From an uncultured Candidatus Saccharibacteria bacterium (GTDB lineage: Bacteria; Patescibacteriota; Minisyncoccia; Phycocordibacterales; UBA9973), in NCBI GenBank assembly GCA_964544225.1, contig CAZIZK010000001.1, forward strand, positions 207,477 to 271,476: a stretch of DNA of 64,000 nt. Reading direction: 5' to 3'. Shown here one piece after another: positions 6,040 to 64,000 of the stretch (position 1 is its first letter; each line of letters starts with the position of its first letter). Both the position numbers and the translations under genes were made by a program. A model generated the notes under the pieces. It was given only the letters and a program-made list of their open reading frames with translations, ran no database searches and was not told where the DNA came from.

Positions 6040-6115
6040 TTATAAACAACGCGTTATAAAAACGCGTTGTTTATGTATAGTAACAGCAAGCTTGAAATGC
6101 TATAATATTTAAAGC

Positions 6116-8878: not shown

Positions 8879-8914
8879 ATAAATTAATTACGAATTAATA
8901 ATTACGAATTACGA

Positions 8915-10200: not shown

Positions 10201-10211
10201 ATAATATTTAT

Positions 10212-10613
10212 ATGCAATTTAAAGTTCCACAATTTATCGACATAGAGGACAAGTTATTTGGTCCTTTTACATTCAAGCAATTTACCTATCTGGCCGGAGG
10301 TGGGGGTTTGGTATATGTATTGTATAAATTGTTGCCTATATATCTAGCTATCCCACTGATCATACCGGTTGCAATACTAGCAGGATTGCTAACATTCTAC
10401 AAAATAAATGGCAAACCCTTCCTTTACTACCTACAAGCAAGTATTACATACGCGGTAAAGAGCAAGCTGTATGTATGGAAGCAACGTTTGGAAAAACCAG
10501 AAATGAAGAAAGAGGTTCCCAGCTTGCCCAACCAGACATCTGTTGTGCCTACGCTTTCAGGTAGCAGACTAAAGGATTTATCGTGGAGCCTCGATGTTCT
10601 GGATAAAAAGTAA
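10212..10613 (+). CDS. Small two-TM membrane protein, PrgI/VirB3-like (T4SS inner-membrane component).
   Basis: 133 aa with two hydrophobic helices (LAGGGGLVYVLYKLLPIYLAIPLIIPVAILAGLLTF). Sits immediately upstream of VirB4-like genes, as in Gram-positive T4SS operons. Confidence 0.4.
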   Translation: MQFKVPQFIDIEDKLFGPFTFKQFTYLAGGGGLVYVLYKLLPIYLAIPLIIPVAILAGLLTFYKINGKPFLYYLQASITYAVKSKLYVWKQRLEKPEMKKEVPSLPNQTSVVPTLSGSRLKDLSWSLDVLDKK

Positions 10614-10658
10614 TTTCCCACTTATAAATTAAACCTTTTACATGTTACAATAAATATT

Positions 10659-11306
10659 ATGGCTCTGGATGCAAGAAGATCACAAGAATTTGTTCCAATA
10701 AAAGAAGTTCGCGATGGTATCATTATTTTAAAAGATGGTGGGCTTCGTGCTGTATTGGTAGCTTCTTCTATCAACCTATCTCTAAAGTCTAGCGACGAAC
10801 AGAAGGCGGTTATAGCCAACTTTCAAAACTTTCTAAACGGGCTCGACTTTTCTATACAGATAGTGGTCCAGTCACGTAGGCTCGATATCCGCCCTTATCT
10901 ACTAACTCTAGAAGAGAGGATGAAAGTCCAAGTAGAACCCCTGATCAAGATCCAGACAAAGGAATATATGGACTTTATCCAATCTTTTACAAATGAAGTA
11001 AACATTATGACAAAGAGCTTCTTTGTAGTGGTGCCATATAGTGGTAGTACATTTAAATCCGACGAGAGTATTGTCGAGAAGGTGTTAGATATGAAGAAGG
11101 CAAAGAAGGGTAGCACAAAGAAAGAGGAGGACCTAGCAAGTTTCGAGGAGAAGAGGTCACAATTGGACCAGCGTATTGCTATGATAAGCCAGGGTTTGGG
11201 TGGGTTTGGAGTTCGTAGTTCACAGCTTGGCACAGAGGAGATAATCGAGATGTTCTACAAGACATTCAACCCCGGTGATATTAGTCAGGGTATTAAATTA
11301 GAATAA
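10659..11306 (+). CDS. VirB4 N-terminal-domain-like protein (215 aa). Possibly the N-terminal fragment of a split VirB4.
   Basis: Pattern DGIIILKDGGLRAVLVASSINLSLKSSDEQKAVIANFQNFLNGLDFSIQIVVQSRRLD resembles the N-terminal region of Gram-positive VirB4/TraE-type proteins. It ends 7 nt before, and in a different frame from, the VirB4 ATPase ORF. Confidence 0.4.
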   Translation: MALDARRSQEFVPIKEVRDGIIILKDGGLRAVLVASSINLSLKSSDEQKAVIANFQNFLNGLDFSIQIVVQSRRLDIRPYLLTLEERMKVQVEPLIKIQTKEYMDFIQSFTNEVNIMTKSFFVVVPYSGSTFKSDESIVEKVLDMKKAKKGSTKKEEDLASFEEKRSQLDQRIAMISQGLGGFGVRSSQLGTEEIIEMFYKTFNPGDISQGIKLE

Positions 11307-11313
11307 TTATTAT

Positions 11314-13149: not shown

Positions 13150-13188
13150 TTAATTGTTTAGAACCTTTAATTATCGTATAATATAGTA

Positions 13189-14178
13189 GTGAAAAAAAGG
13201 TTGCTACAACTTACACTATTAATACTTATCCTAGTAAGTATTATGCCTATGTCTATAAATGCCGAGGCTCTTCAGGTAACATCTGCAGATATAAATATCG
13301 AGACAATACCCGACAACCCACAGCCCTATACTGACGTAACTATGACTATCACAAGTTATGCAACCGACCTAAATAAGGCCCTAATAACATGGAAGAGTGG
13401 TGACGACACTATACTATCGGGTATTGGTCGTACTAAATACGTTTTTAAAACAGGTGCTCCAAATATCAATACTTCCTTTACAGTATCTATAACACCAGCA
13501 GGGAGCTTTGCTTCTGTTGAAAAGAGCTTTGTAATCAGCCCTTCGGAGGTAGAGATGCTGTGGCAAGCCATTGACTCTTATACACCACCATTCTATAAGG
13601 GCAAGAGCTTCCCCACATCTGAGGGGTCAGTGCGTATTGTAGCTATGCCAAACACTGTGGGTATATCTAGTGGTAGTAACAAAAGTATGGCGTACTATTG
13701 GAAGCTGAACTACGATAGCGCCCAGGATGCATCGGGGTATGGCAAGGATTCCTTTACCTACAAGAACAGTTATCTAAATGATACCGATCATATTGGGGTA
13801 TCGGTATCTACAACCAATGGTTCCTACACAGGCAATGGCACAATAGACATACCTATGTACAATCCAGAGATGATCTTCTACAAGAAGTCTCCAACTGAAG
13901 GTATAAAGTACAACGAGGCTGTAACAGGCGAAGTCTACATGAATGAGGACGAGATGACTCTTGTAGCGGAGCCATACTTCCTAAACAATTCAAACGGTAC
14001 AAATGATCTAACTTATAAATGGAAGATAAACAACAACGACATCAGTACACCACGCAACCCTCGCGAACTGACAGTCCGCCCTACATCACGTGGGGGATAC
14101 GCCAACATAAATATTTCTATAAGTAGTATTAGTAAACTATTCCAAAACATTAATAAGTCTATAAAAATTAATCTGTAA
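13189..14178 (+). CDS. Secreted hypothetical protein (signal peptide) in the T4SS-like island.
   Basis: N-terminal MKKRLLQLTLLILILVSIMPMSINAEA signal. 329-aa ORF. Confidence 0.5.
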   Translation: MKKRLLQLTLLILILVSIMPMSINAEALQVTSADINIETIPDNPQPYTDVTMTITSYATDLNKALITWKSGDDTILSGIGRTKYVFKTGAPNINTSFTVSITPAGSFASVEKSFVISPSEVEMLWQAIDSYTPPFYKGKSFPTSEGSVRIVAMPNTVGISSGSNKSMAYYWKLNYDSAQDASGYGKDSFTYKNSYLNDTDHIGVSVSTTNGSYTGNGTIDIPMYNPEMIFYKKSPTEGIKYNEAVTGEVYMNEDEMTLVAEPYFLNNSNGTNDLTYKWKINNNDISTPRNPRELTVRPTSRGGYANINISISSISKLFQNINKSIKINL

Positions 14179-14183
14179 AAATA

Positions 14184-14611
14184 ATTAATGAAAAAAATAT
14201 TATTAATAATATTTATAGCAATAGCATTTTTAGGAAATTTTAATATTTCAAGTGCTGAATTCTTGGACCCTATACAAACACAAGCTGTACAAGAAGACTA
14301 TAGTTTATTGGCACCAATTCCAGGTGTAAATAAAATAGATAATACGAATACACTAGGCACATATCTTAACTTTTTCTTTAAATTCGCTATATCTGTGTGT
14401 GCTGGATTGGCAGTACTTATGATAGTTATATACGGGGTACAGTATATGGGAGATGGGTCAGTATTTGGCCATACAGAAGCAAAGAGTAAAATAGGTTCTG
14501 CTATTATGGGATTATTGTTAGCACTTGGTGCATATGCACTACTAAATACTATTAACCCAGATCTGGTGGGGAGTAATGGTATAAAGATTAAACAGGTGAC
14601 GATAAAACTCC
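14184..14611. repeat. Direct repeat copy 1 (~428 bp, 100% identical to 15100..15527). It covers the 5' 141 codons of the first hydrolase-like gene plus 4 bp upstream.
   Basis: Nucleotide-by-nucleotide comparison of the two segments in the sequence shows no difference. Divergence begins right after ...gtgacgataa. Confidence 0.85.
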
Positions 14612-15099
14612 AGTCGATGGATATCCCTCAAGAAGTACAAAAAGATGGAACATATGTTGGAACAACTTATAAAAAGGGTGAAATTTGGCCAGACGATCAA
14701 AAAACAAGAGATGACTTAAAAAAAATAAATATTTCAGTTTCTCCAACAAAATGCACAACAGTAGGACAAAGTGGTTGTACAACTGTTTACGGATTAAACA
14801 CTGCTTTTGTTTCAAAGTTAAAAACAACTTGCCCAACTTGTGATATAACCATAACAGAAGGTACTGGATTTTGGAAACACATAGCTAATGTGTATAAAAT
14901 ACATTATCCGGGTGGGTGGACTGTAGACATGCGTCAAACAACAACACTTTCTACATTTATACACTCAAAACCAAAAACTCCTTTTAGTTGGGGAATTTGT
15001 TATGATATTGGTAATGGTTTAGGTATAGTGGAAGAAAAAGACCATTTCCATGCATTTAGCTTAACAGGTGGATGTAATACTTCTAAGCAAGGTGTTTAA
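14188..15099 (+). CDS. Membrane-anchored putative peptidoglycan peptidase (LAS/M15-like zinc peptidase signature). N-terminus has a signal peptide plus two hydrophobic helices, i.e. VirB2/TrbC-pilin-like topology.
   Basis: The N-terminal 141 aa are shared identically with the next gene. The C-terminal domain has H-x7-D (IHYPGGWTVD) and HxH (DHFHAF) spacings reminiscent of LAS-family D,D/L,D-peptidases. Tentative. Confidence 0.5.
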   Translation: MKKILLIIFIAIAFLGNFNISSAEFLDPIQTQAVQEDYSLLAPIPGVNKIDNTNTLGTYLNFFFKFAISVCAGLAVLMIVIYGVQYMGDGSVFGHTEAKSKIGSAIMGLLLALGAYALLNTINPDLVGSNGIKIKQVTIKLQSMDIPQEVQKDGTYVGTTYKKGEIWPDDQKTRDDLKKINISVSPTKCTTVGQSGCTTVYGLNTAFVSKLKTTCPTCDITITEGTGFWKHIANVYKIHYPGGWTVDMRQTTTLSTFIHSKPKTPFSWGICYDIGNGLGIVEEKDHFHAFSLTGGCNTSKQGV

Positions 15100-15527
15100 T
15101 AATATGAAAAAAATATTATTAATAATATTTATAGCAATAGCATTTTTAGGAAATTTTAATATTTCAAGTGCTGAATTCTTGGACCCTATACAAACACAAG
15201 CTGTACAAGAAGACTATAGTTTATTGGCACCAATTCCAGGTGTAAATAAAATAGATAATACGAATACACTAGGCACATATCTTAACTTTTTCTTTAAATT
15301 CGCTATATCTGTGTGTGCTGGATTGGCAGTACTTATGATAGTTATATACGGGGTACAGTATATGGGAGATGGGTCAGTATTTGGCCATACAGAAGCAAAG
15401 AGTAAAATAGGTTCTGCTATTATGGGATTATTGTTAGCACTTGGTGCATATGCACTACTAAATACTATTAACCCAGATCTGGTGGGGAGTAATGGTATAA
15501 AGATTAAACAGGTGACGATAACTCTTT
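15100..15527. repeat. Direct repeat copy 2 (~428 bp, 100% identical to 14184..14611).
   Basis: See copy 1. Confidence 0.85.
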
Positions 15528-16213
15528 CTCCAGGTCAACAATACAGATTGTCTGAAACCCAAGCCACAACAAAAAAGTTTGCTAGGACTAAATACTATGA
15601 CACAATAAAAGCAACTGCTGCAAAAAAGGAGTACAACATTCCACACTGTTTGTTGCAAGTTGCAATACAAAGAGAGTCTGGTGGGGTAGCAGGTTTAGTT
15701 GGTCACGACGAAGAAGCTCCTGCTTTTGGTATCCCGTCCAGAAAGAATTTTGTAAATTCAGGTAAAAAGTATAGCGGGACAACATTTACATCTAGCCAAT
15801 CATTAATAACAGACAGGGGGTTCCATAACGACGATCATAAGGGAAATAATTTATTCTCTGCTTCCAAGCCAACAGCTGTTGATTTAGGGTTGGATTGGCG
15901 ATATTCACATGCAATAGGTATGTTTGGGGTAACATTTTACCCAGCAGGGGAAAGTTATGGTGATTATACTAAAGGTATATATATGGTAATATTAAAAAAG
16001 ACAGTCTTCCCAAAAGATTTGTTTAATACTAATACAGATATATTAGTAGCTGCTGAAATGATGAGTAGTAACTACAAACTTTGTAATAATAATGTGGAGC
16101 AAACATATAGGAAATATGGCTCTGGTCGTTGTGATGGGAGTAATGCATTTACTAATGTAGAAGCCCCTCTTAGAAAGAATTTATACGATCAGTGCGTAGC
16201 TCAAGATAAATAA
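15104..16213 (+). CDS. Membrane-anchored putative lytic transglycosylase (VirB1/SLT-like) sharing its N-terminal module with the preceding gene.
   Basis: Identical N-terminal 141 aa. C-terminal region IQRESGG...AIGMFGV resembles the SLT catalytic Glu and GLMQ-type motifs. The ORF-track start at 15068 is an upstream extension; the true start is inferred at the conserved MKKILL (15104). Confidence 0.5.
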   Translation: MKKILLIIFIAIAFLGNFNISSAEFLDPIQTQAVQEDYSLLAPIPGVNKIDNTNTLGTYLNFFFKFAISVCAGLAVLMIVIYGVQYMGDGSVFGHTEAKSKIGSAIMGLLLALGAYALLNTINPDLVGSNGIKIKQVTITLSPGQQYRLSETQATTKKFARTKYYDTIKATAAKKEYNIPHCLLQVAIQRESGGVAGLVGHDEEAPAFGIPSRKNFVNSGKKYSGTTFTSSQSLITDRGFHNDDHKGNNLFSASKPTAVDLGLDWRYSHAIGMFGVTFYPAGESYGDYTKGIYMVILKKTVFPKDLFNTNTDILVAAEMMSSNYKLCNNNVEQTYRKYGSGRCDGSNAFTNVEAPLRKNLYDQCVAQDK

Positions 16214-16214
16214 A

Positions 16215-17537
16215 ATGAAAAAAACAATTATCATTATAATACTTATACTAGCCACCGCAGGTGGGACACTTTGGTATATACAAAGTAAACAAGCTACAAA
16301 TAATACGAGTACCACTGACACTGGTACAGGATTTTTGAAATCTTTCTTTTCTTTCAATCAAAACAATACTTCAAACACAACAACTGATACTAACAGTACA
16401 GATGGCACAGGCACTGATACGGAAACAGGGGATGCAACAGATACCGAAACACCAAATACCACAAATACTAATAAACTTGTTCAAGTAACTGACTTTCCAA
16501 TATCAGGCCTTGCTAGCTTTATCGACACACGCCCTCTACCAGAAAGTGCTATCCCAGTAACAACTACACCAGTAAAAGATGCAAAGGGTAAGATTGTGCA
16601 GGCAAAAGTTATAGCCCCATCAGTCGAATCTGTATCTGCATTACGATATGCAGCCCGTGCAAATGGCCATATATATAGCCAGTACCTAGACACTGGTGCA
16701 AGTGCAAAGATATCTAACGCAACCATTCCAAGTATTTACGAAACATATTTCGGTGACAATGGTAAGGCTGTGGTGTATAGATACCTAAACAACAACGACC
16801 AAACTATCCAAACATTTCTAACACATACCGATGGGTCAAAGGGTGACTTTCTTCAGGAAGATATCTCTGGTATTGCAATATCACCAGACAGTAATTCACT
16901 CTTCTACCTGGCACCGCTTGGTAGTAATGTGGCAGGGTACTATATGAACTTTAAAGACAACAACAAGATACAGGTATTCACATCTGCATTTACCGAGTGG
17001 CTACCACAGTGGGCAGGGACTTCTACTATATTCCTAACTACAAAGCCTTCTTGGGACACTGTAGGCTCTATATACGCTACAAATATTGGGAAGAACAACT
17101 TTATAAAAGTATTTAGTGGGTTAAAAGGTTTAACGACTCTTGCATCTAATAATGCAGCCAATATCCTATATAGCAGTACTTCCAATATTGGCCCCGAGCT
17201 CGGTGTATACAATATCGACAAGCATGAGTTCACAAAGCTACCTGTAAGAACACTCGCAGACAAATGCGTATGGAGTCGTGATGGAGTACGTGCATATTGT
17301 GCAAAGCCAAATAATATAGAGGGTAATAAGTACCCAGACAATTGGTACAAAGGAATCGTGTCATTTAATGACAGTATTATATCTATAGACACTGCTAACA
17401 AATCATACTCTACTTTAGTAAATACAGAAGATGTACAAGCAATAGATGCGATCAACCTAACACTTTCCCAAGACGAGAAGATATTGTTCTTCTTAAACAA
17501 AAAAGACTCCACAATGTGGAGGCTAGACCTAGAATAG
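16215..17537 (+). CDS. Membrane-anchored protein with a Thr/Asp-rich linker and a possible beta-propeller (TolB/PD40-like) C-terminal region.
   Basis: N-terminal TM (IIIIILILATAGGTLWY), low-complexity TDT repeats, and recurring SPD/SRDG-type motifs. Weak assignment. Confidence 0.45.
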   Translation: MKKTIIIIILILATAGGTLWYIQSKQATNNTSTTDTGTGFLKSFFSFNQNNTSNTTTDTNSTDGTGTDTETGDATDTETPNTTNTNKLVQVTDFPISGLASFIDTRPLPESAIPVTTTPVKDAKGKIVQAKVIAPSVESVSALRYAARANGHIYSQYLDTGASAKISNATIPSIYETYFGDNGKAVVYRYLNNNDQTIQTFLTHTDGSKGDFLQEDISGIAISPDSNSLFYLAPLGSNVAGYYMNFKDNNKIQVFTSAFTEWLPQWAGTSTIFLTTKPSWDTVGSIYATNIGKNNFIKVFSGLKGLTTLASNNAANILYSSTSNIGPELGVYNIDKHEFTKLPVRTLADKCVWSRDGVRAYCAKPNNIEGNKYPDNWYKGIVSFNDSIISIDTANKSYSTLVNTEDVQAIDAINLTLSQDEKILFFLNKKDSTMWRLDLE

Positions 17538-43559: not shown

Positions 43560-43629
43560 ATTTATAATTATATCAGTATATGTACAAAAGGCTATACCTA
43601 ATTATTTAATATGTTATAATCTTCGTATT

Positions 43630-44055
43630 ATGAAGCATATAGTAAAAAGTGATGTTGTAAAAGGTTTTAGGGAGTTTGTGATCAGAGGGAACGCTATTGA
43701 TCTAGCTGTTGGTATTGTTGTAGGAGCAGCCTTTACGTCGGTTGTAAATGCTCTAGTAAAGGGCCTGATTACTCCGCTTATTGGTGCCATTGCTCGGGTT
43801 CCTGATTTTTCTGGATTGTATTTCACATTTCGTGATAGTAAGTTTATGTATGGCGATTTTATCAATACTCTTATTTCTTTTGTTCTATCCGCGGCAGCTA
43901 TATATTTCTTTGTTATTGTACCTATGAATAGTTTGAAGAAGAGAATAGATAAAAACAAACCCAAAGAGGATCCAACAACAAAGGATTGTGCTGAGTGTAT
44001 GAGTACTATACACATAAAGGCAAAGCGCTGCGCACATTGTGGGCAGGCGGTTTAG
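43630..44055 (+). CDS. mscL: Large-conductance mechanosensitive channel MscL, with an unusual C-terminal CxxC...CxxC zinc-ribbon-like tail.
   Basis: GFREFVIRGNAIDLAVGIVVGAAF signature. The ORF-track start at 43432 is an extension overlapping the convergent gene; the true start is the MKHIVK Met. Tail is DCAECMSTIHIKAKRCAHCGQ. Confidence 0.85.
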   Translation: MKHIVKSDVVKGFREFVIRGNAIDLAVGIVVGAAFTSVVNALVKGLITPLIGAIARVPDFSGLYFTFRDSKFMYGDFINTLISFVLSAAAIYFFVIVPMNSLKKRIDKNKPKEDPTTKDCAECMSTIHIKAKRCAHCGQAV

Positions 44056-44649: not shown

Positions 44650-45075
44650 ATGAAAACTTTGGGAATCGATTATGGGTCTAAAAGGGTGGGGGTGGCCATG
44701 TCTGACGACGGTGGAACTATGGCTTTTCCATTTGGGGTCCTTTCTAATAATCCAGAACTAATAAATGATATAGCAAAACTGGTTACCGAGCATGAAGTTA
44801 CCGCAATAGTACTCGGCGAGTCTACTGACAGTAGTGGCAAGGCCAATAAAATAATGGGTAGCATCGAGAAGTTTAAGCAGAATATAGAAGCCGACCTAGA
44901 CGTACCTGTTTATTATCAAAAAGAGTTCATGACCAGCCTGCATTCTGGTAATACACTGACCAAAGATATCTTTTCCGACCGACAAATGAAGAAGGATAAG
45001 GAGGTAAAGGATGACTCCAAATCCGCCGCCCTAATATTGCAAAGATATTTAGACAAGAAGAATATAAATAAGTAG
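44650..45075 (+). CDS. ruvX: Putative pre-16S rRNA nuclease / Holliday junction resolvase-like YqgF (RuvX).
   Basis: MKTLGIDYGSKRVGVAMSD N-terminus. 141 aa. Confidence 0.85.
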   Translation: MKTLGIDYGSKRVGVAMSDDGGTMAFPFGVLSNNPELINDIAKLVTEHEVTAIVLGESTDSSGKANKIMGSIEKFKQNIEADLDVPVYYQKEFMTSLHSGNTLTKDIFSDRQMKKDKEVKDDSKSAALILQRYLDKKNINK

Positions 45076-45083
45076 TAAGGAAA

Positions 45084-46832
45084 ATGAATCAAAAATCAGA
45101 AACAAAATCATGCCAAAATTGTAAAAATGACTTTACTATCGAGCCGGAGGATTTTGTGTTTTATGACAAGATGGCTGTACCTGCTCCAACATTCTGCCCG
45201 CAGTGTCGCTTTCAAAGGCGATTGGCTCATAGGAATGACAGGTCTTTATACAGAAGGGAATGTGGACTATGTAATAAGAAAATTTTAAGTATTTACCACA
45301 AGGATTCTGTGATTAAAAATGTATTTTGTCCCGAGTGCTGGTGGGGTGACGGCTGGGACCCATTTAATTACGGAGTAGATTATGATTTTTCGAAAGATTT
45401 CTTTACTCAATATTTTGAATTTAAAAAGAATTCTCCACACCAAAGTGTGTATCATGTTAATTTTGTGAATAGTGAGTATTGTAATTTTGGCCACAGTTAT
45501 AAGAACTGCTATTTAGTTTTTGGTGGATATAATAATGAAAATGTTTCGTATGGAAATTTGATAGGGGATATTATGGATTCCTCTGATGTTTCTTTGTCTA
45601 CCAACTTAGAGATGTGTTATGAGGTGAATAATTGTTTCCACTCATCGAAGCTAAGATTTTGTAATAGTTGCGAGGATTCCAGCGACCTTACTTTCTGTAC
45701 AGATTGCCGAGGGTGCGTATCTTGCTTTGGTTGTGCTGGTTTGCGAAATAAACAATACAATATCTTCAATCAACAATATTCTAAAGCTGAATATGAAGAA
45801 AAATTAAAAGATCTAAACATATCAAGTTTTAAAAATAAAATAGAAATAGAAAATTATTTTAAAAATTTTGCATTACAATACCCGTATCGATATACCAGAA
45901 CTCGTAATGTTGTAGATTGTACTGGGGATGATATTACCAACTCTAAGAACTGTAAAGATGGTGTTTGGGGCCACGGGATGGAGGATTCCAGGTATGTATT
46001 CTTTACTGTAAATGCAAAAGAATGTTATGACATTACCGCTGTTGGTACGTTAACAGGCGGAACAGAACTATTATACGAAGTATCGAGCTCATTTGGTGGA
46101 CACAGGCAGATGGTGGGTATACGTACAGTGGGTGATAGAAATTCTTTTTACAGTGAAGACTGTCATAATTGTAATGATATTTTTGGTTGTATTGGGTTGA
46201 AGAAAAAGTCTTATTGTATCTTTAATAAACAATACTCAAAGGAAGAGTATGAAGAATTGTTACCAAAGATTATTGAACAAATGAAGGCTATGACTTATAC
46301 AGATAAGATGGGGCGTGTTTACGGATTTGGCGAATTTTGGCCTATTGAATTGTCACCGTTTGGCTACAATGAAACAAAGGCTATGGAGTATTTTATTTTA
46401 AATAAAAATGGAGTTCTGGATAAAAGGTTCAATTGGTATGAAAAAGAAGTAAATACTTATGAAGTTACAATGCAGAATATTAATATACCAGACGACAGTA
46501 GTAATGTAGACGAATCAATATTAAATGAAATAATAGAATGTGCACATAGTGAGTGCAATCATGGCTGTACAAAAGCTTTTAAGATAAACCCAAATGAATT
46601 CCAGGTTATAAAACAGTTAGGGGCACCACTACCGAGGGCTTGTCCTAATTGTCGTCATTATGAAAGATTGGACAAACAACAACCTATACAATTCTGGCAG
46701 CGTTCTTGTATGTGTGAACTAACGAACCATGAGCACGAAGGCAAGTGTCAGGTTGAGTTCCAAACTACTTACTCACCTGACAGACCTGAAAAGGTGTATT
46801 GTGAAAAGTGTTATCAACAGGAGGTGGTATAA
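45084..46832 (+). CDS. Cys-rich multi-zinc-ribbon protein, paralog 1 of 3 (582 aa). Family unknown.
   Basis: N-terminal CQNCKNDFTIEPEDFVFYDKMAVPAPTFCPQCRFQRRLAHRN...CGLC. An internally repeated module C-x2-C...FGC-GL-[RK]NK-Y-[CN]-IFN-[KQ]-QYSK-[AE]-EYEE occurs twice. A C-terminal ribbon homologous to the N-terminal one (FKINPNEF...PLPRACPNCRHYERL...CEKCYQQEVV). Confidence 0.6.
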   Translation: MNQKSETKSCQNCKNDFTIEPEDFVFYDKMAVPAPTFCPQCRFQRRLAHRNDRSLYRRECGLCNKKILSIYHKDSVIKNVFCPECWWGDGWDPFNYGVDYDFSKDFFTQYFEFKKNSPHQSVYHVNFVNSEYCNFGHSYKNCYLVFGGYNNENVSYGNLIGDIMDSSDVSLSTNLEMCYEVNNCFHSSKLRFCNSCEDSSDLTFCTDCRGCVSCFGCAGLRNKQYNIFNQQYSKAEYEEKLKDLNISSFKNKIEIENYFKNFALQYPYRYTRTRNVVDCTGDDITNSKNCKDGVWGHGMEDSRYVFFTVNAKECYDITAVGTLTGGTELLYEVSSSFGGHRQMVGIRTVGDRNSFYSEDCHNCNDIFGCIGLKKKSYCIFNKQYSKEEYEELLPKIIEQMKAMTYTDKMGRVYGFGEFWPIELSPFGYNETKAMEYFILNKNGVLDKRFNWYEKEVNTYEVTMQNINIPDDSSNVDESILNEIIECAHSECNHGCTKAFKINPNEFQVIKQLGAPLPRACPNCRHYERLDKQQPIQFWQRSCMCELTNHEHEGKCQVEFQTTYSPDRPEKVYCEKCYQQEVV

Positions 46833-46839
46833 TCATCTT

Positions 46840-48555
46840 ATGGTTCGAGAAACAAGAAATTGCCAAAACTGTAAGAATGACTTTACTATCGAGCCGGAGG
46901 ATTTTGTGTTTTATGACAAGATGGCTGTACCTGCTCCAACATTCTGCCCAGATTGTAGGCTTCAACACCGCCTTGCTATTTACAATGAACGATTCCTGTA
47001 TCACTCAAATTGTGAAAATTGTTCTAAAAAAATAATAACAATATATAAAACAGATTCAGGATTCAGGCCATTTTGTGAAGAATGTTTTTCTTCTGACAGC
47101 TGGGATGCAATTGACCAGGGGAGAGATTTTGATTTTTCTCGAGATTTTTTTACCCAATACAGAGATTTGCAAAGGAGCATTCCGGTGAATTATCGTGCCC
47201 ACCTAAATGATATTAATAGTGACTTTTCTAATCAATGTTTCCGTACTAAAAATGCGTACCTTTCTTTTAGTGTTATTGGGGTAGAAGATGTTTTGTATTC
47301 TAAACTAATCAATAGGCCATCTAGGCAGATAATAGATTCATTAAATGTTCGTGAATGTGAAATGTGTTACGAGCTTGTAAATACAACGAGTTCATACGGA
47401 TCCACTTTCTTAACAAATTGTAGGCAATGTGTGACATCACACTTCCTGATCGACTGTGTTGGATGCACTGATTGTTTTATGTCATACAACCTTCGTAATA
47501 AAAGTTATGTGTTTAGAAACAAACAACTTTCAAAAGAAGAGTATTATGAAGCTTTAAATGGGTTAAATAAGAATAAATACTCAGCTCACAAAGAACTTTG
47601 TGAGGAATATAAGGAAATGGCAAATAAAGTTATATATAAATTTTCCACTATTGTTAAGTCAGATGATTGTACTGGTAATATGATAGAAAATTCTCACAAT
47701 GCTAAAAATACTTTTAACTCCTTTTCTGTTGTAGATAGTAAATATATAGGTTTTTCTACAAAGCCAATAAGTGACTCTTATGACGTAACTATAATCGGGC
47801 AAACTGATCAGTGTATAGACATTATTGCTTCTGGTCGTGGTAATTATAAAGTAAAATTTACTTCTGGGGCAGGAGCTTCTTCATCTATGGAATATACTGA
47901 TTGGTGCAATGATTGCCAAGATGTATTTGGTTGTGTGGGATTGCGCAATAAAAAATATTGTATCTTAAATAAACAATACACAAAGGAGGATTATTTTGAA
48001 ATGCGTGAAAAAATAATAGAGCATATGAATAGCAATCCTTTTGTCGACAAGCGAGGTGTTGTTTATAAATACGGAACGTTTTTCCCAATACAACTCTCAC
48101 CATTTGCATATAATGAAACAGTAGCTTTTGAAGAATTTCCACTCTCAAAAGAGGAAACGATAGATTCTGGTTTTGTTTGGTATGAGCAGACAAAGAAGGA
48201 ACATATTCCAACAATACTTAGTACGGATTTGCCAGACAGTATTCCAGTAGATGAAAGTGAAATTCTGAATGAAATCATATCTTGTCCAAATAACGGAGAT
48301 ACAATACGTAATTGTACAGGGGCGTATCGTATTATAAAAGACGAACTTATGTATTATGATAAACTAGGGTTACCATTACCAAGATTCTGTCCTAACTGCA
48401 GATATTATGAAAGAAATGGAAGAACTTTACCATGGAGACTATGGGATAGAAAATGTATGAATAATGGGTGCGAAAATAAATTCCAAACCCCATATGCACC
48501 CGATCGGGCAGAGTTGGTTTATTGTGAAAAGTGTTATCAGCAGGAGGTGGTATAA
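46840..48555 (+). CDS. Cys-rich multi-zinc-ribbon protein, paralog 2 of 3, in tandem with paralog 1.
   Basis: Same architecture. The start is chosen at MVRETRN because the ORF-track extension overlaps paralog 1. A 74-bp block is 100% identical with paralog 1 (45126..45199 vs 46876..46949) and the last ~36 nt are near-identical. Confidence 0.6.
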   Translation: MVRETRNCQNCKNDFTIEPEDFVFYDKMAVPAPTFCPDCRLQHRLAIYNERFLYHSNCENCSKKIITIYKTDSGFRPFCEECFSSDSWDAIDQGRDFDFSRDFFTQYRDLQRSIPVNYRAHLNDINSDFSNQCFRTKNAYLSFSVIGVEDVLYSKLINRPSRQIIDSLNVRECEMCYELVNTTSSYGSTFLTNCRQCVTSHFLIDCVGCTDCFMSYNLRNKSYVFRNKQLSKEEYYEALNGLNKNKYSAHKELCEEYKEMANKVIYKFSTIVKSDDCTGNMIENSHNAKNTFNSFSVVDSKYIGFSTKPISDSYDVTIIGQTDQCIDIIASGRGNYKVKFTSGAGASSSMEYTDWCNDCQDVFGCVGLRNKKYCILNKQYTKEDYFEMREKIIEHMNSNPFVDKRGVVYKYGTFFPIQLSPFAYNETVAFEEFPLSKEETIDSGFVWYEQTKKEHIPTILSTDLPDSIPVDESEILNEIISCPNNGDTIRNCTGAYRIIKDELMYYDKLGLPLPRFCPNCRYYERNGRTLPWRLWDRKCMNNGCENKFQTPYAPDRAELVYCEKCYQQEVV

Positions 48556-48639
48556 TATAAAATCAATTCGATAGGAATAGGACGGCCGTCTCTATTAAGA
48601 ATACTTTGATTTATATAGAGTAAGTTGTAATATGGATAT

Positions 48640-49014
48640 ATGGAATACGTAAAATACGAAGAATTTAAAAAGATGGATATAAGGGTAGGTACTATAAAAG
48701 AGGTAGAGGCCGTGCCTGATACTGACAAGCTACTAAAATGCATGATCGACTTTGGCGAGGTGGAAGAGATTGGTGAGGGGGAGGATGTAACTGCAACATC
48801 GAAATTGCGCCAGATAGTTTCTGGGATCAAGGAGTATTACCCAGATATTGAGAATCTTGTTGGTAAACAAGTTCTATATATAGTGAACCTAGAACCACGA
48901 AAGATAAAAGGCTACGACAGCAACGGCATGCTCATGGCTGTAGATGGGTTAGATGGCAAGCCTGTATTCCTAATTCCTGAGGGCGAGGTTGCCCCAGGTG
49001 CACAAGTAAGATAA
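48640..49014 (+). CDS. tRNA-binding protein (CsaA/Trbp111/EMAP-like OB-fold domain).
   Basis: MDIRVGTI...DKLLKCMIDFG...RQIVSGI...LVGKQV...NLEPRKIKGYDSNGM matches the tRNA-binding Myf domain. Confidence 0.75.
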   Translation: MEYVKYEEFKKMDIRVGTIKEVEAVPDTDKLLKCMIDFGEVEEIGEGEDVTATSKLRQIVSGIKEYYPDIENLVGKQVLYIVNLEPRKIKGYDSNGMLMAVDGLDGKPVFLIPEGEVAPGAQVR

Positions 49015-52233: not shown

Positions 52234-52309
52234 TGGTGCGCGATGCAAGACTCGAACTTGCGACCTTCCCGGTGTAAACGGGTTGCTCTACCAACTGAGC
52301 TAATCGCGC
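52234..52309 (-). tRNA. tRNA-Val (anticodon TAC), CCA encoded.
   Basis: GCGCGAT acceptor, D-arm GCTCAGTTGGTAGAGC, anticodon loop TTTACAC, T-arm GCAAGTTCGAGTCTTGC, 3' CACCA. Confidence 0.8.
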
Positions 52310-52334
52310 ATATTTACATTTATCTTAAAACTAA

Positions 52335-52400
52335 AGCACTTTACGCTCTTTGGTCCCATACCTACCAAGACAGCTAATCGCGCATATTTACATTTGTACT
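52335..52400 (-). pseudogene. Decayed 5' fragment of a tRNA-Val-like gene, including a 24-bp direct repeat (agctaatcgcgcatatttacattt) of the tRNA-Val 5' end plus its upstream flank.
   Basis: 52375..52386 repeats the first 12 nt of tRNA-Val. The adjacent sequence retains a D-arm-like GTCTTGGTAGGT, but no T-arm or acceptor is present. Confidence 0.45.
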
Positions 52401-52483
52401 AAAACAGCTAATAACACATAAGCACAAGATAGATAATAGCATATTTTTAATATATTTCAACCTTATGCTAGTATGTAACTATA

Positions 52484-60982: not shown

Positions 60983-61055
60983 GGGGGTTATGGTGTAACG
61001 GTTAACACTGAGGTTTGTGGAACCTTCGATCTGGGTTCGATTCCCAGTAGCCCCC
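60983..61055 (+). tRNA. tRNA-His (anticodon GTG) with the characteristic extra 5' G(-1) paired to C73.
   Basis: Manual fold: G-1, acceptor GGGGTTA/TAGCCCC, D-stem GTGT/ACAC, anticodon loop TTGTGGA, T-arm CTGGGTTCGATTCCCAG. Confidence 0.85.
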
Positions 61056-61097
61056 CAATAAAAAAGCCGCTTTCGAGCGGTCTTTTTTATTGGGGGG
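61051..61097 (+). terminator. Long composite hairpin (outer 16-bp stem ccccccaataaaaaag / cttttttattgggggg enclosing ccgct-ttcg-agcgg) overlapping the tRNA-His 3' end.
   Basis: Read directly. The reverse complement of the left arm equals the right arm. Confidence 0.6.
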
Positions 61098-61114
61098 CTA
61101 AGAAAGACACTTGA

Positions 61115-61320
61115 GTGTCTTTCGTCTGGGTGAGCTGTGTTAAGGGGAACCCTTTAGGGAAACACAGCGCAAGACCTTGAACATTTTGTACTCAAAAAGT
61201 GAAAGGTGTACAGTTTCTGTAAGAAAACGAAAGACCGTTAGCGATGTAATCGCCGATACGCGTACTCGCGGTCCCAGTTTCTCCTGTAAGGTTCGATAAG
61301 CGTACTCGCGGTCCCAGTCT
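61115..61320 (+). ncRNA. Candidate structured RNA or regulatory leader. The region is GC-richer than its surroundings, shows long-range pairing (gtctttcgt ... acgaaagac), nested hairpins (gctgtgtt...aacacagc; ccc-ttta-ggg), and a 2x direct repeat gcgtactcgcggtcccagt.
   Basis: No ORF of meaningful size. Multiple complementary segments were read directly. Class unassigned; no match to the tmRNA, RNase P, SRP or riboswitch consensus I can recall. Confidence 0.3.
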
Positions 61321-61374
61321 GTGTATTTTATGCTATAATTGTTCCATTAACAGTTTATTTCAATTTTTATTTAT

Positions 61375-61770
61375 ATGACAACAGGATTATTGATCGCATT
61401 GCTCGGAGCTGTAGTTAGCTTCCTTTTGGGCTGGTTGTGGTATTCAAAGTTTATGTTTGGTAAGTTCTGGATGGCCGAGATGGGCATAACAGCAGAACCA
61501 ACAAAGGCCGAGAAGAAGGCTATGATGCCAAAGATGCTTGCCCTAGGTTTATTCGGTGACTTTGTAAGGTCTTTTGTTTTTCTATTACTTGTGGCTACAC
61601 TTCGTGCTAACCAGTTCTACCTTGGTGCATTTATCTGGCTTGGATTTATATTGCCAATGTTATTGAACGCAGTTATGTACGAGAAGAAGTCATGGAGACT
61701 ATTCCTAATCCACGCTGGTTACTACCTAGTATCTATCATGGCTATTGGTTTCGTATTTTCATTCTTCTAA
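61375..61770 (+). CDS. Polytopic membrane protein of unknown function (131 aa).
   Basis: Four hydrophobic helices. ORF with a downstream terminator. Confidence 0.55.
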   Translation: MTTGLLIALLGAVVSFLLGWLWYSKFMFGKFWMAEMGITAEPTKAEKKAMMPKMLALGLFGDFVRSFVFLLLVATLRANQFYLGAFIWLGFILPMLLNAVMYEKKSWRLFLIHAGYYLVSIMAIGFVFSFF

Positions 61771-61800
61771 TAGCTAAACAATCTTAAAAAACACAATGTC

Positions 61801-61856
61801 CCACAATAGCCACGGCCGTGGCTATTGTGGTGTTTGCATTGTATTTGCTTTATTTT
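61801..61856 (+). terminator. Perfect 15-bp palindrome ccacaatagccacgg/ccgtggctattgtgg followed by a T-rich tract.
   Basis: Read directly after the 61375..61770 stop. Confidence 0.7.
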
Positions 61857-61878
61857 GGGCGAGTTGTAATATGGAGAT

Positions 61879-63555
61879 ATGGAATACAATAGTGAAAATA
61901 AGATATGTCAGAACTGCAAAAACGACTTCCAAATCGAGCCGGATGATTTTGGCTTTTATGATAAGATCGGGGTCCCAGCACCGACTTGGTGTGTAGATTG
62001 TAGGCAGCTTCGCCGTTATGCATGGAGAAATGAGAGGACACTATATAGGCGCAATTGTGACTTGTGTAGTAAATCTACAGTAACAATATATTCAGCCGAC
62101 AAACCATACAAAGTATATTGTGTGTCTTGCTGGTGGAGCGACAGCTGGGATGAAAGTGAGTACGGAAGGGACTTTGATTTTACCCGACCCTTCTTCGAGC
62201 AGTTTGCCGAACTGCAAAGGGATGTTCCTCGTATGGCACTTCTGACAAAGAACAGTACAAACTCAGAATATACAAATCACTCAGGTAACAACAAGAATGC
62301 TTATATCTCTTTTGCTACTTTTGATAGTGAAAATATTTTATATGGAACATGGGTTATGGACTCACGCGATTGTACCGACTGTAGCTTTGTTTATGAAAAA
62401 GGCGAGAAGTTGTACGAGTGTATCGATACGCATAATTGCTATAAATCACAGTACTCTGTCTTTATGAACAGCTCTACCGACTGTATGTACTGCTTTGATG
62501 TGAATGGTTCTGGCAATTGTTTTATGTCTTGCAATCTACGTAGTCAGAATTATGTTTTTAGAAATCAGAAATATAGCAGAGAAGAATATTTAGAATTGGT
62601 GGGCCAATACGACTTATCATCTTATGCTGTCCGCCAAGAATTGTTCAAGGAATATATAGATATGGTTAGGAACCAGGCTATACATAAATACATGCAAGGG
62701 GAGAGGAATATAAATTCTTTTGGGAACTTACTATTTTCTTGCAAGAATACGATCAATTGTTTCGAGCTTGATCGTGCCGAGGATTGTAAAAATCTTTATA
62801 GTGGTTTAGACATCAAGGATTCTATGGATCTGTACCATGTAGGGCGCAAAGTAGAACTATGTTATGAATGCCAAGGGTCTGTTGGAATTTACAATACACA
62901 ATTTTGCCACCTTTGTTATGACAATTCACACCTGATGTATTGTGACTCTTGCCAGAATAGCCAGAACTTATTTGGCTGTGTATCTGTAAAGAAGGGCGAG
63001 TACATGATATTTAATAAAAAGTATTCAAAGGAAGAGTACACAGAGTTAAAGAATAAGATAATTGAACACATGAAAAGTACTGGCGAGTTTGGCGAATTTT
63101 TCCCTATAGAGATTGCCCCAGTATATTTCAACGAGACTCGTGCGATGATATATATGCCAATGGGAAAAGACGCAGTTCTGGCTAAAGGTTGGAACTGGGA
63201 GGAAAAGGCCCCAGGAGTATTTGGCAAAGGCACGACAGATATGAATGAAGTTCCAGACAGTATCAATGATGTTGATGAGGAATATATAAAGAATATTTTT
63301 ACCTGTATAGATTGTGATAAAAATTATAATATAACAGCTGAAGAGTTTGCCTTTTATAAGAGGGAGGTTGTGCCACTTCCACACAAATGTCCAGATTGTA
63401 GAGAGAAGGGTAGAATAGCTCAGAGGATGGAAAGGCACCTATGGCATCGTGGTTGTTCCAATGATGGATGTACAAATGAATTCGAAAGTCCTTACGAGCC
63501 AAACCGGCCCGAGAAGGTGTATTGTGAGGATTGTTATAAAAAGGAAGTATTATAA
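61879..63555 (+). CDS. Cys-rich multi-zinc-ribbon protein, paralog 3 of 3 (558 aa).
   Basis: N-terminal CQNCKNDFQIEPDDFGFYDKIGVPAPTWCVDCRQLRRYAWRNERTLYRRNCDLC. Two internal modules (...CFMSCNLRSQNYVFRNQKYSREEYLEL / ...FGCVSVKKGEYMIFNKKYSKEEYTEL). C-terminal FAFYKREVVPLPHKCPDCREKGRIAQRMERHLWHRGC...RPEKVYCEDCYKKEVL. Confidence 0.6.
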   Translation: MEYNSENKICQNCKNDFQIEPDDFGFYDKIGVPAPTWCVDCRQLRRYAWRNERTLYRRNCDLCSKSTVTIYSADKPYKVYCVSCWWSDSWDESEYGRDFDFTRPFFEQFAELQRDVPRMALLTKNSTNSEYTNHSGNNKNAYISFATFDSENILYGTWVMDSRDCTDCSFVYEKGEKLYECIDTHNCYKSQYSVFMNSSTDCMYCFDVNGSGNCFMSCNLRSQNYVFRNQKYSREEYLELVGQYDLSSYAVRQELFKEYIDMVRNQAIHKYMQGERNINSFGNLLFSCKNTINCFELDRAEDCKNLYSGLDIKDSMDLYHVGRKVELCYECQGSVGIYNTQFCHLCYDNSHLMYCDSCQNSQNLFGCVSVKKGEYMIFNKKYSKEEYTELKNKIIEHMKSTGEFGEFFPIEIAPVYFNETRAMIYMPMGKDAVLAKGWNWEEKAPGVFGKGTTDMNEVPDSINDVDEEYIKNIFTCIDCDKNYNITAEEFAFYKREVVPLPHKCPDCREKGRIAQRMERHLWHRGCSNDGCTNEFESPYEPNRPEKVYCEDCYKKEVL

Positions 63556-63558
63556 TTT

Positions 63559-64000
63559 ATGAAAAAGTTTATAAACATAGAAAATAGTGAAAAGATTGAA
63601 TTTAACTCCAGCGATTTACCAATGCTTATTCATGGCAAGGATAAAACAGGTTCTTCACTTTTTTCTATTACTGTTGCTGTGCATCTGCATACTCAAGGTA
63701 ATAAGCTTTTAATATTTACTGCATATTCAATGGCAAAGGATGAATTCCTACTTCAGGTAGGGAGCGATGCTTCTGTTTTTTATTTAGAAAATATAGATGA
63801 CATATCTAAAGCGCAAGAATATCAAACTATAATAACTAAAAGTGGGAACAAGGATTTATGTGAAAAAACTCTGGCCAAGATTGCAGATATTGATTCAAGA
63901 ATACTTTTTATAAAGAACGTTGATCAGATGCTAAGTAGTGATATAGTAGAAAATATGAAGCAGGGGAGTGGACTATTAATTTCTGGTGACATTGATTTAT
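63559..64000 (+). CDS. Hypothetical protein, 3' end truncated by the window edge.
   Basis: Open frame with no stop from the ATG at 63559 to the window end (hand translated: MKKFINIENSEKIEFNSSDLPMLIHGKDKTGSSLFSITVAVHLHTQGNKLLIF...). Confidence 0.45.
   Translation, partial: MKKFINIENSEKIEFNSSDLPMLIHGKDKTGSSLFSITVAVHLHTQGNKLLIFTAYSMAKDEFLLQVGSDASVFYLENIDDISKAQEYQTIITKSGNKDLCEKTLAKIADIDSRILFIKNVDQMLSSDIVENMKQGSGLLISGDIDL

Follow-up and report, generated by a model that had tools for sequence, protein, structure and literature searches.

A large unannotated family of cysteine-rich Paceibacteria proteins with predicted zinc modules at both ends and putative gene-conversion tracts between tandem copies

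Introduction

The Pfam families zf_Tbcl (PF13451) and zf_Tbcl_2 (PF23477) and the NCBIfam family TIGR04272 (the CxxC-x17-CxxC domain) comprise short treble-clef zinc domains with two CxxC pairs, and they resemble the first and last fingers of the proteins described here. However, they are only about 40 residues long and have no assigned function, and they leave the central segments of our proteins (M, M′ and L, about 65% of the length) unmatched. LIM domains, which are eukaryotic protein-binding modules (e.g., CRP1, 1ctl/1b8t), consist of two consecutive treble-clef-type fingers with eight ligands and end in YC-x2-CY, as does the Z module of the present family. In LIM domains the finger spacer has 2 residues and one ligand is a His, whereas the Z module has an 18-residue spacer and all-Cys ligands. 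The M and M′ modules can be compared with β-solenoids, including the Tenebrio antifreeze protein (1ezg), curli CsgA (8c50), ryegrass IRI (3ult) and the left-handed β-helix acyltransferases. In genomic terms, arrays of PPR- or TPR-type paralogues likewise hold many old paralogues per genome, with a common scaffold and a differing repeat-built surface. The parallel is no more than an analogy. The two are not related in sequence or fold, and target recognition by the present family is putative.

A large part of bacterial diversity belongs to the CPR/Patescibacteria, whose genomes are drastically reduced and of which almost none have been cultured. We found no description of the family in the literature searched. 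Parcubacteria-enriched families are mostly hypothetical, which is all that is said on them by Meheust et al. (2019, PMC6744442), and the analysis of Kuroda et al. (2024, PMC10936435) was restricted to secreted proteins.

Results

The window, i.e., the whole 64-kb stretch of DNA analysed, was predicted to carry three related genes, and all three were found as intact ORFs on the + strand at the coordinates given for them. Paralogue 1 (45084..46832; 582 aa, 36 Cys) and paralogue 2 (46840..48555; 571 aa, 31 Cys) are adjacent, and paralogue 3 (61879..63555; 558 aa, 34 Cys) is located further downstream. The ATG of paralogue 2 at 46840 matches the N terminus of the family, and 7 nt separate it from the preceding stop codon of paralogue 1; a second in-frame start is listed at 46729 and would make the gene overlap paralogue 1. 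The three proteins share 44, 38 and 38% identity in pairwise comparisons, and their genes share 51 to 55% at the nucleotide level. No additional copies were detected inside the window by tblastn, and a fourth copy 1 kb beyond its end brings the total to four in about 22 kb. A protein identical to paralogue 1 is present in NCBI, on a contig of 344,230 bp.

A ruvX/yqgF-type gene (44650..45075, + strand; Pfam RuvX, E = 2.8e-27) ends 8 nt upstream of paralogue 1 and is probably part of the same transcription unit. A tRNA-binding-domain gene of the CsaA/Trbp111 type (48640..49014, + strand; Pfam tRNA_bind, E = 1.1e-23) follows paralogue 2 after 84 nt. The ruvX neighbourhood recurs in another sampled locus, L010, and the tRNA-binding-domain gene also adjoins family genes in L010 and L023. 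Paralogue 1 is the orthologue, by position, of the single L010 copy, which lies between ruvX and the tRNA-binding-domain gene (49% identity, compared with 39% for paralogue 2). Paralogue 2 is a divergent extra copy, its nearest relative across the sampled loci being only 45% identical. Paralogue 3 is 79% identical to the L082 copy and 61 to 69% identical to those in L069, L044, L030 and L046, and it represents a different old subfamily.

The original prediction spoke of a three-member family. The family in fact has thousands of members. They form 5,042 clusters at the 50% identity level and over 6,300 at 90%, all from Patescibacteria/Paceibacteria and all annotated “hypothetical”; by these cluster counts it is one of the largest unannotated families of Paceibacteria. 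Copy number ranges from 1 to 9 per locus, 47 of 84 loci contain two to nine copies, and up to nine copies are found per 20 kb in co-directional arrays. Of the spacers between family genes, half measure 12 nt or less or are overlaps, and the copies are often arranged head to tail within one operon. The copies are ancient, because the closest relative of a copy is in the same locus in just 8 of 148 cases. Nine-copy arrays contain five to seven different subfamilies. Individual paralogues retain their chromosomal positions across genomes, as in the recurring gene orders purL-X-purQ, X-nrdAB and ruvX-X-csaA, where X denotes the family gene.

A recent lineage-specific burst is rejected by this same distribution of nearest neighbours. 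The idea of a polymorphic family is unlikely as well, given ancient paralogues with positional orthologues and a variable centre between termini that are the most conserved parts. We also rejected a link to purine synthesis in which the family protein would substitute for PurS, since PurL in the purL-X-purQ loci already has an N-terminal/linker domain. The window has no pur genes, and its 988-aa ORF is not PurL. The recurring purL-X-purQ order is treated here as a conserved position, and any functional reading of it is speculative.

The family proteins are about 570 residues long, with a median of 34 Cys, of which 16 are in the terminal modules, and they have the layout Z-M-M′-L-Z′. In paralogue 1, the Z module (45084..45383, + strand; residues 1 to 100) comprises two sequential putative treble-clef zinc fingers with the Cys sets C10/C13/C38/C41 and C60/C63/C82/C85, and it was modelled by AF2 with pLDDT values of 92 to 97. 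The M1 module (45384..45818, + strand; residues 101 to 245) is made up of a head helix, a Cys-rich region of putative β-solenoid class that ends in CxxCxxCxxC-FGC-GL, the motif NKQY-IFN-QYSKEEY and a capping helix, and M2 (45819..46289, + strand; residues 246 to 402) is a second copy of the M module. We took stacked coils of short strands in a confident model as the criterion for a β-solenoid, and the class assignment of M and M′ is putative. The L domain (46290..46523, + strand; residues 403 to 480) is acidic (median net charge of −6) and well conserved (GEFFP-E-SPF-YNET-A), and no relatives of it were detectable, including by a search of PDB sequences with its profile. The Z′ module (46524..46829, + strand; residues 481 to 582) is a C-terminal copy of the double treble-clef module, with the Cys sets C486/C495/C520/C523 and C542/C555/C573/C576.

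Profile comparisons by hhalign bear out both predicted repeats, namely that of the terminal ribbon module near the C terminus (Z versus Z′, E = 1.3e-20) and that of the internal Cys-rich module (M1 versus M2, E = 7.3e-28). The order of the modules is mirror-like, unlike that expected of a Z-M unit repeated in tandem. AF2 models of a family protein had pLDDT values of 81 and then 87 (pTM 0.90). Sampled members have no hydrophobic segment, signal peptide or TM segment, and the proteins are predicted to be soluble and cytoplasmic.

In a combined alignment of selected N- and C-terminal modules, all eight Cys residues of the terminal module are invariant, with the spacing C-x2-C-x24-C-x2-C-x18-C-x2(-13)-C-x18-C-x2-C. 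Four Cys4-type sites are strongly conserved across the family (90 to 99% kept, except the second N-terminal site at about 57%), and one or two more are possible in the central modules. The six to eight Zn sites per protein first proposed are therefore an upper estimate. Mean column identity is 0.57 and 0.55 in the outermost parts of the zinc modules and 0.30 and 0.28 in the solenoids.

No match to the family was found in Pfam, NCBIfam, PADLOC or PDB. Recurrent Pfam/NCBIfam matches are limited to the first finger (10/46 members), which in Z and Z′ reads CxxC...F-I...DF-FY-K...P-P..C..CR, and to the last (6/46), which reads C...F-T-Y-P-R-E-VYC-x-CY. For zf_Tbcl, the best scores were 19.0 bits (paralogue 3) and 14.9 bits (paralogue 2) against a gathering cut-off of 24 bits, with no match for paralogue 1; E < 0.01 was obtained for 10 of 46 family members, none of which reached the cut-off. 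The best scores for zf_Tbcl_2 (17.4 bits, cut-off 27) and TIGR04272 (18.7 bits, cut-off 36) came from the last zinc knuckle only, and sub-threshold matches to all three profiles were found in the Z′ module. The best PDB sequence matches of the Z-module profile were LIM domains, with a borderline E value of 9e-4 (range, 9e-4 to 0.1). The module departs from the LIM signature C-x2-C-x16-23-H-x2-C-x2-C-x2-C-x16-21-C-x2-(C/H/D), and the resemblance is a borderline likeness in sequence, with homology only putative. The original prediction had named, as grounds against itself, a match to a known family combined with evidence that multi-copy families are routine in the lineage; the arrays are indeed routine, and no such match exists in the databases searched. 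The family thus has no name, curated profile or solved relative.

The abundance of Cys residues raises the question of whether the central clusters bind additional metal or Fe-S, in which case its members would be redox, catalytic or metal-handling proteins that differ in substrate. Ferredoxin-type cluster motifs have CxxCxxC at their core, and the Cys residues of the M1 CxxCxxCxxC are 82 to 96% conserved and accompanied by further semi-conserved Cys. Invariant polar residues are also present outside the zinc sites, among them N-E in the YNET motif. In addition, the gene for CutA1, a divalent-ion tolerance protein, adjoins a family gene in 9/9 loci that have it (3.9 expected), and one lies near the fourth family copy in this genome. 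However, the CutA1 association stems from a small number of related syntenic blocks. Not all paralogues keep the central Cys, part of the M1 cluster being absent from paralogues 2 and 3, and the M2 set is degenerate. The M1 motif also lacks the CP of the ferredoxin-type CxxCxxCxxxCP, and no Pfam Fer4, radical-SAM or other enzyme match was found even at E = 1. We thus regard a metal or Fe-S role as unlikely.

We next consider the stretches shared by the two adjacent genes. The predicted block of exact identity was reproduced: 74 nt at 45126..45199 in paralogue 1, encoding NDFTIEPEDFVFYDKMAVPAPTFCP of the first zinc finger, match 46876..46949 in paralogue 2 exactly, both on the + strand. This is the longest exact run between the two genes. 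In 5,000 permutations of their aligned sites, the longest run had a mean of 11.6 nt and a maximum of 24 nt, and in the pairs with paralogue 3 the longest exact runs are 14 and 13 nt. Since an exact run of this length stands out against a 55% background and the permutation maximum, the block is best read as a gene-conversion tract, as had been proposed. The alternative proposal of selection at the nucleotide level is unneeded. Among codons for the same amino acid within the block, 23/24 are identical between paralogues 1 and 2, and only 9/18 in each pair with paralogue 3, which has nearly the same peptide; in the rest of the gene, 50% are identical. The identity of the block is thus not due to constraint on codons.

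The last 36 nt of paralogue 1 (46797..46832, + strand) match positions 48520-48555 of paralogue 2 at 35/36 sites. The near-identity reported for this end is thus correct, but it is only weakly beyond chance, with 10/12 same-amino-acid codons identical, and the segment may be a second short conversion tract. A Shine-Dalgarno-like GGAGG in the last codons (CAGGAGGTGGTATAA) was considered as a cause of 3′-end conservation, as it could serve the next tandem gene. This was rejected because the motif is not enriched there, being found in 7/45 genes that closely precede a family gene and in 49/146 others.

In many independent assemblies, tandem copies share exact tracts of 30 to 408 nt at matching positions in the gene, which supports gene conversion and indicates that neighbouring family copies probably exchange short tracts occasionally. 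The tracts are located in the stretches that are most alike, i.e., the first zinc finger, the FGC...NKQYSKEEY motif and the last codons. The contig is metagenome-assembled and short repeats can mislead assemblers, so that the block might be a collapse or chimera of paralogues 1 and 2. The recurrence of tracts in independent assemblies of other genomes argues against this, both genes are intact and in frame, diverged sequence flanks the block on either side, and typical reads exceed the block in length. An independent Logan assembly is 100% identical to the last 3 kb of the window, a stretch that does not include paralogues 1 and 2. An artefact is hardly credible.

Analysis of the other loci revealed a soluble P-loop ATPase of the FtsK/HerA/VirD4 type (roughly 510 to 540 aa; Pfam TrwB_AAD_bind, TraG-D_C, T4SS-DNA_transf and DUF87), with 40 occurrences in 26/85 family loci. 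It adjoins a family gene in 20 of these, and blocks such as dnaK-ATPase-X(n)-ATPase-dnaJ recur. The family proteins could then be its cargo or adaptors, in one version effectors that a machine for secretion or DNA translocation would receive during episymbiosis. Nevertheless, the 20 adjacencies barely exceed those obtained by shuffling gene order within loci (mean 13.9, maximum 21), and no such ATPase is found near the family copies of the window. In 35 of 36 cases the enzyme has no N-terminal membrane anchor as found in true coupling proteins. The family proteins have no signal peptide, they end in a folded zinc knuckle and not in a disordered secretion signal, and zinc-stabilised folds would be poor translocation substrates. 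Functional coupling to the ATPase was downgraded on the basis of the adjacency figures and its absence from the window, and we consider it improbable.

This ATPase of other loci, which is unrelated to the family, matches the PADLOC HerA and mad8 models, and no other protein did so. Together with the multiple copies, central variability, conversion tracts and insertions between housekeeping genes (purL|purQ, upstream of nrdA, dnaK|dnaJ), this might point to a conflict system, such as an anti-phage defence, a polymorphic toxin/immunity set or selfish homing-type genes within conserved operons. The three paralogues themselves have no PADLOC-DB match at E ≤ 0.1, and no family copies were found in IMG/VR viral contigs, INPHARED phages or PLSDB plasmids; a defence, phage or plasmid origin was rejected on these grounds. 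The lone PHROG match, with M2 of paralogue 3, is a weak one to a function-less entry (E = 1.5e-6). No nuclease or toxin domain was found, and the proteins differ from polymorphic toxins or effectors by their lack of signal or TM segments and by a variable centre with conserved termini, without a C-terminal “warhead.” Old paralogues in stable positions, with orthologues across many lineages, are the opposite of patchy, fast turnover. A conflict system is therefore highly improbable.

Discussion

We tentatively propose that the family members serve inside the cell as a panel of recognition or adaptor proteins, a role that is possible but still rather doubtful; the description given above and this mechanism, taken jointly, are somewhat easier to defend, though short of probable. 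The conserved zinc modules at both ends would be constant “handles” for a partner common to the paralogues, either nucleic acid or a shared protein, and the two fast-diverging solenoid modules would offer a surface that gives each paralogue its own target. Nucleic acid is a possible partner because the second CxxC is followed by an Arg-rich helix, CRFQRRLxFRNNR, that is conserved. However, the terminal modules are only mildly basic (net charges of +1 and +3) and the protein as a whole is slightly acidic (about −4), which is weak for such a binder, and the closest resemblance of the Z module is to the protein-binding LIM domain, with the borderline E value given above. The absence of the second N-terminal zinc site in about 43% of members also counts against the proposal, and the many residues that are invariant outside the zinc sites across domains would also fit a compact enzyme.

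Tight operonic arrays of old paralogues would also fit the subunits of one complex. The paralogues would then form a heteromeric intracellular scaffold, filament or cage, in which the homologous N- and C-terminal zinc modules make head-to-tail contacts between different paralogues and gene conversion keeps the contact modules compatible. We consider this unlikely. The AF2 monomer is predicted as one compact body and not an open, extended unit, and many loci have a single copy in an unrelated operon, e.g., purL-X-purQ, which is odd for an obligate subunit. Copy number also varies between loci.

Returning to recognition or adaptor proteins, Paceibacteria have genomes of about 1 Mb that largely lack conventional regulators. 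A more far-reaching idea, which we consider a long shot, is that these genomes maintain a dozen or more ancient paralogues, of an architecture found in no other group, as either a lineage-specific set of target-specific nucleic acid or protein recognition factors that replace such regulators, or a heteromeric, zinc-clamped β-solenoid machine of a kind not seen before. In the former case, individual members would be embedded in the operons on which they act, i.e., pur, nrd and dnaK-dnaJ.

In this family, short-tract gene conversion can be seen cleanly in a natural setting, between tandem paralogues that have diverged deeply, and the family is a ready marker of Paceibacteria-type genomes. Its definition gives structural and biochemical studies a concrete target. 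As streamlined genomes keep it in many old copies, it is very likely central to their biology. Should its members turn out to be specificity factors linked to operons, or parts of a new cellular assembly, this would fill part of the large gap in our knowledge of how CPR cells are regulated and organized.

Three related genes in the window and a fourth beyond it

The three Cys-rich genes on the plus strand of the window, paralog 1 (45084-46832, 582 aa), paralog 2 (46840-48555, 571 aa) and paralog 3 (61879-63555, 558 aa), align end to end, with 38 to 44% protein identity and 51 to 55% nucleotide identity, confirming that they form a family as originally proposed. The reading frames of paralogs 1 and 3 are intact. 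For paralog 2 we chose the family-consistent start, the ATG at 46840, which lies 7 nt past the stop codon of paralog 1 and gives the N terminus MVRETRNCQNCK. No further copies were found by tblastn inside the 64 kb. An independent Logan assembly (L085), whose positions 1-3000 equal 61001-64000 of the window at 100%, adds 9.5 kb beyond the window and carries a fourth family gene (L085 4038-5753, 571 aa; 39% identical to paralog 1, E=4e-142), approximately 1.0 to 2.8 kb past the 3′ end of the window. It is directly followed by nrdA-nrdB, encoding class I ribonucleotide reductase, and then by genes for a thioredoxin-like protein, DsbB, CutA1 and an HD-domain protein.

A 44-nt stretch (48605-48648) from the 5′ region of the gene for the tRNA-binding-domain protein, which closely follows paralog 2, is 84% identical to 61844-61887 in the 5′ region of paralog 3. 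The pair spans the ATG and the next two codons (ATGGAATA[TC]), and may represent a promoter/RBS cassette common to both genes or be left over from a rearrangement that had brought paralog 3 next to paralog 2.

Gene conversion between paralogs

Positions 45126-45199 of paralog 1 are identical to 46876-46949 of paralog 2, a maximal exact run of 74 nt. In 5,000 shufflings of the aligned sites, the mean length of the longest run was 11.6 nt and its maximum 24 nt, and the longest runs in the pairs with paralog 3 (14 and 13 nt) are at chance level. Synonymous codon usage provided the decisive control. Within the block, 23 of 24 same-residue codons are identical between paralogs 1 and 2, whereas paralog 3, which encodes nearly the same peptide, shares only 9 of 18 with either of them; the background codon identity elsewhere in the genes is 50%. 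Thus, the identity of the block does not result from protein- or nucleotide-level constraint, arguing against the selection on nucleotide sequence that had been put forward as an alternative to conversion. The block is best read as a recent gene-conversion tract. That it might instead be an assembly artefact, i.e., a collapse, is hardly credible, because similar tracts recur in independent assemblies, the reading frames are intact and the block is short. The last 36 nt of paralogs 1 and 2 match at 35 positions, and 10 of their 12 synonymous codons are the same, which is only suggestive as a trace of conversion.

We surveyed exact runs in 226 within-locus pairs of family genes from genomes other than that of the window. 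Runs of at least 30 nt were present in 17 pairs, of at least 50 nt in 5, and of 408 nt in a single one. Nineteen of the 34 tracts of at least 25 nt are located within the first 10% of the gene, and the others in the FGC...NKQYSKEEY region or the last 10%. These positions are also the most conserved protein segments; in the simplest reading, conversion would start where residual identity is highest, with no need for selection on the DNA itself. The 408-nt block, by far the longest tract seen, occurs in a locus (L066) with two family copies (9998-11695 and 12776-14503) separated by one ORF; it begins at approximately nt 1110 of the gene, within its second half.

Size and distribution of the family

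The original prediction counted three members; in addition to the fourth copy just past the window, at 50% identity the family comprises 5,042 clusters with E≤1e-3, and 2,131 of them reach E≤1e-30. The best 150 clusters are mostly near full length, at approximately 430 to 610 aa. At 90% identity, more than 6,300 of the 8,000 candidate clusters scored belong to the family; all of them are unnamed or 'hypothetical', and none has a precomputed Pfam domain. Among GTDB species representatives, at least 557 stretches contain the family, with titles naming Nomura-, Giovannoni-, Lipton-, Staskawicz-, Sungi-, Jorgensen- and Niyogibacteria, Paceibacterota and Minisyncoccia, a few of these labels being evidently generic or mis-binned. 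No copies were found in IMG/VR viral contigs, phage genomes or plasmids, and PADLOC returned no match for the family proteins, making it very improbable that they constitute a conflict system.

Domain architecture and metal sites

Profile-profile comparisons (hhalign) of segments of a 46-sequence alignment showed that the N-terminal 90 or so residues match the C-terminal 100 or so (probability 99.3%, E=1.3e-20), and residues 101 to 250 match residues 251 to 400 (E=7.3e-28), establishing the two internal duplications that had been noticed in the sequence. Cross-comparisons were negative. The domain order is Z-M-M′-L-Z′, with terminal zinc modules (Z, Z′), central modules (M, M′, or M1, M2) and an acidic linker domain (L); this mirror-like layout indicates two separate duplications rather than a tandem Z-M repeat. 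AlphaFold2 yielded a model with a pLDDT of 81 and a pTM of 0.85 from 46 sequences, and of 87.2 and 0.90 from 122 sequences, with pLDDT values of 90 to 97 in the zinc modules and the L domain and 62 to 92 in the central modules. In the models, each half of a terminal module has the knuckle, hairpin, helix order of a treble clef. M and M′ would tentatively fall into the beta-solenoid class, but the scores are no indication of homology.

When selected N- and C-terminal modules were aligned together, eight Cys residues were invariant, in the pattern C-x2-C-x24-C-x2-C-x18-C-x2(-13)-C-x18-C-x2-C. We scored ligand conservation across 185 family members (paralog 1 numbering). The first N-terminal site (C10/C13/C38/C41) is 97 to 99% conserved and the second is complete in only approximately 57% of members, while the C-terminal module has a first site (C486/C495/C520/C523) conserved at 90 to 99% and a second (C542/C555/C573/C576) at 97 to 99%. 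M1 contains a cluster, C208-x2-C211-x2-C214-x2-C217 (82 to 96%), and M2 a degenerate set, C360 (79%), C363 (41%), C369 (96%) and C378 (84%). The proteins have a median of 34 Cys residues (range 22 to 45). Of the six to eight zinc sites first envisaged, four per protein are well supported, and one or two further putative metal sites may lie in the central modules. A hydrophobic segment fitting a signal peptide or membrane helix was absent from every member examined. Net charges are +1 for Z, -3 for M1, 0 for M2, -6 for L and +3 for Z′, or approximately -4 for the whole protein.

Pfam and NCBIfam gave sub-threshold matches only, the terminal fingers matching zf_Tbcl, zf_Tbcl_2 and TIGR04272, themselves families without known function, and PHROGs gave a single weak match, to an entry of unknown function. 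Against PDB sequences, the Z-module profile matched LIM domains best, at a borderline E=9e-4, but their finger spacing differs; the L-domain profile had no match. The family's sequences are already public, as 'hypothetical proteins'. It has no curated model, solved or recognizably similar structure or described function, nor any account in the literature searched, and in this respect its original description as undescribed holds. Structurally, its parts are of known types, treble-clef zinc fingers and a probable beta-solenoid; the architecture and the family itself fall outside any known kind.

Arrays and conserved gene neighborhoods

In 84 fetched loci (gene ± 10 kb), one copy was present in 37, two in 20, three in 13, four in 7, five in one, six in 3 and nine in 3. 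Multi-copy arrays are therefore routine in this lineage (47 of 84 loci with at least two copies). Copies within a locus are nearly all on the same strand, and half of the family-to-family spacers are at most 12 nt or overlapping (e.g., ATGA), indicating operons with translational coupling. Only 8 of 148 copies from multi-copy loci are most closely related to another copy of their own locus, the 185 proteins form 63 clusters at 50% identity, and each nine-copy array contains five to seven different clusters (45%-identity level). Judged from these relationships, the arrays are not recent bursts.

Individual paralogs hold their chromosomal position across genomes; with the age of the paralogs, this speaks against the polymorphic family that had been suggested. 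The order ruvX-X-csaA-dedA..., where X is the family gene, is common to the window and to a locus of another genome (L010) with one copy. That copy is 49% identical to paralog 1 and 39% to paralog 2, making paralog 1 its positional ortholog; paralog 2 is an additional copy and unusually divergent, with no relative in the sampled loci closer than 45% identity. X lies directly upstream of nrdA-nrdB in loci L030 and L044 and in the window's genome, and purL-X-purQ-purF-purN-purD recurs, with X copies from one orthologous group. Relative to shuffled gene order, a family gene adjoins purL in 7 loci (1.1 expected) and purQ in 6 (0.7 expected); these statistics, like those for the ATPase below, ignore common ancestry of the loci and show conserved position, not function.

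A soluble FtsK/HerA/VirD4-type ATPase occurs in 40 copies in 26 family loci, with dnaK-ATPase-X(n)-ATPase-dnaJ as a recurring block. However, its adjacency to family genes is barely above expectation (20 observed, shuffled mean 13.9) and it is absent from the window, so that we consider it quite unlikely that the family proteins are partners or cargo of this ATPase. In many Paceibacteria (L015, L023, L048, L058, L061, L076, L081 and other loci), dnaK and dnaJ are split by one or two soluble ATPase copies and one to four family genes. A gene for a PaaX-like regulator (Cas2-like domain) lies divergently upstream of dnaK in dnaK-ATPase-X-dnaJ loci.

Other features of the window

The MscL mechanosensitive-channel gene (43585-44055, plus strand; Pfam MscL, E=2.7e-32) encodes an extra terminal CAEC-x13-CAHC tail, which looks like a predicted small zinc ribbon added at the cytoplasmic end of the channel. 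Two 34-nt direct repeats (61245-61278 and 61285-61318; 85% identical, spacing 40 nt), G+C-rich in an A+T-rich genome, lie between tRNA-His (60984-61056) and a DUF1761 gene (61375-61770) and have no Rfam match. A 44-nt repeat (52288-52331 and 52362-52405; 86% identical, copies 74 nt apart) overlaps the 5′ part and upstream region of a minus-strand tRNA-Val with its first copy, and no called tRNA with its second; a duplicated promoter or the remnant of a tRNA gene may account for it. Large co-directional ORFs (298 to 988 aa) form a run (823-17537) around a VirB4/TraG-type P-loop ATPase (11314-13149; PF19044, E=1e-24). Nine of 10 scanned ORFs (823-16213) had no Pfam match at E≤1e-5, and the run resembles a divergent cluster of type IV secretion or conjugation-like genes.

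Possible function of the family

Any hypothesis must accommodate cytoplasmic proteins with four structural zinc sites in two homologous end modules that both have a conserved Arg-rich helix, two variable, putatively solenoid modules and a conserved acidic L domain with invariant residues (N-E of YNET). It must also accommodate many old, fixed-position paralogs, some within housekeeping operons, tight operonic arrays, and confinement of the family to one reduced-genome lineage. As a tentative candidate role, we propose that the paralogs together make up a panel of proteins serving in recognition or as adaptors, in which the zinc end modules would be constant handles and the putative solenoid modules variable surfaces. 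A heteromeric assembly made of the paralogs appears less likely, and metal/Fe-S or catalytic proteins less likely still. The family is no anomaly peculiar to the window; it represents a major component of the dark matter of CPR bacteria, and is by now well defined and open to testing.
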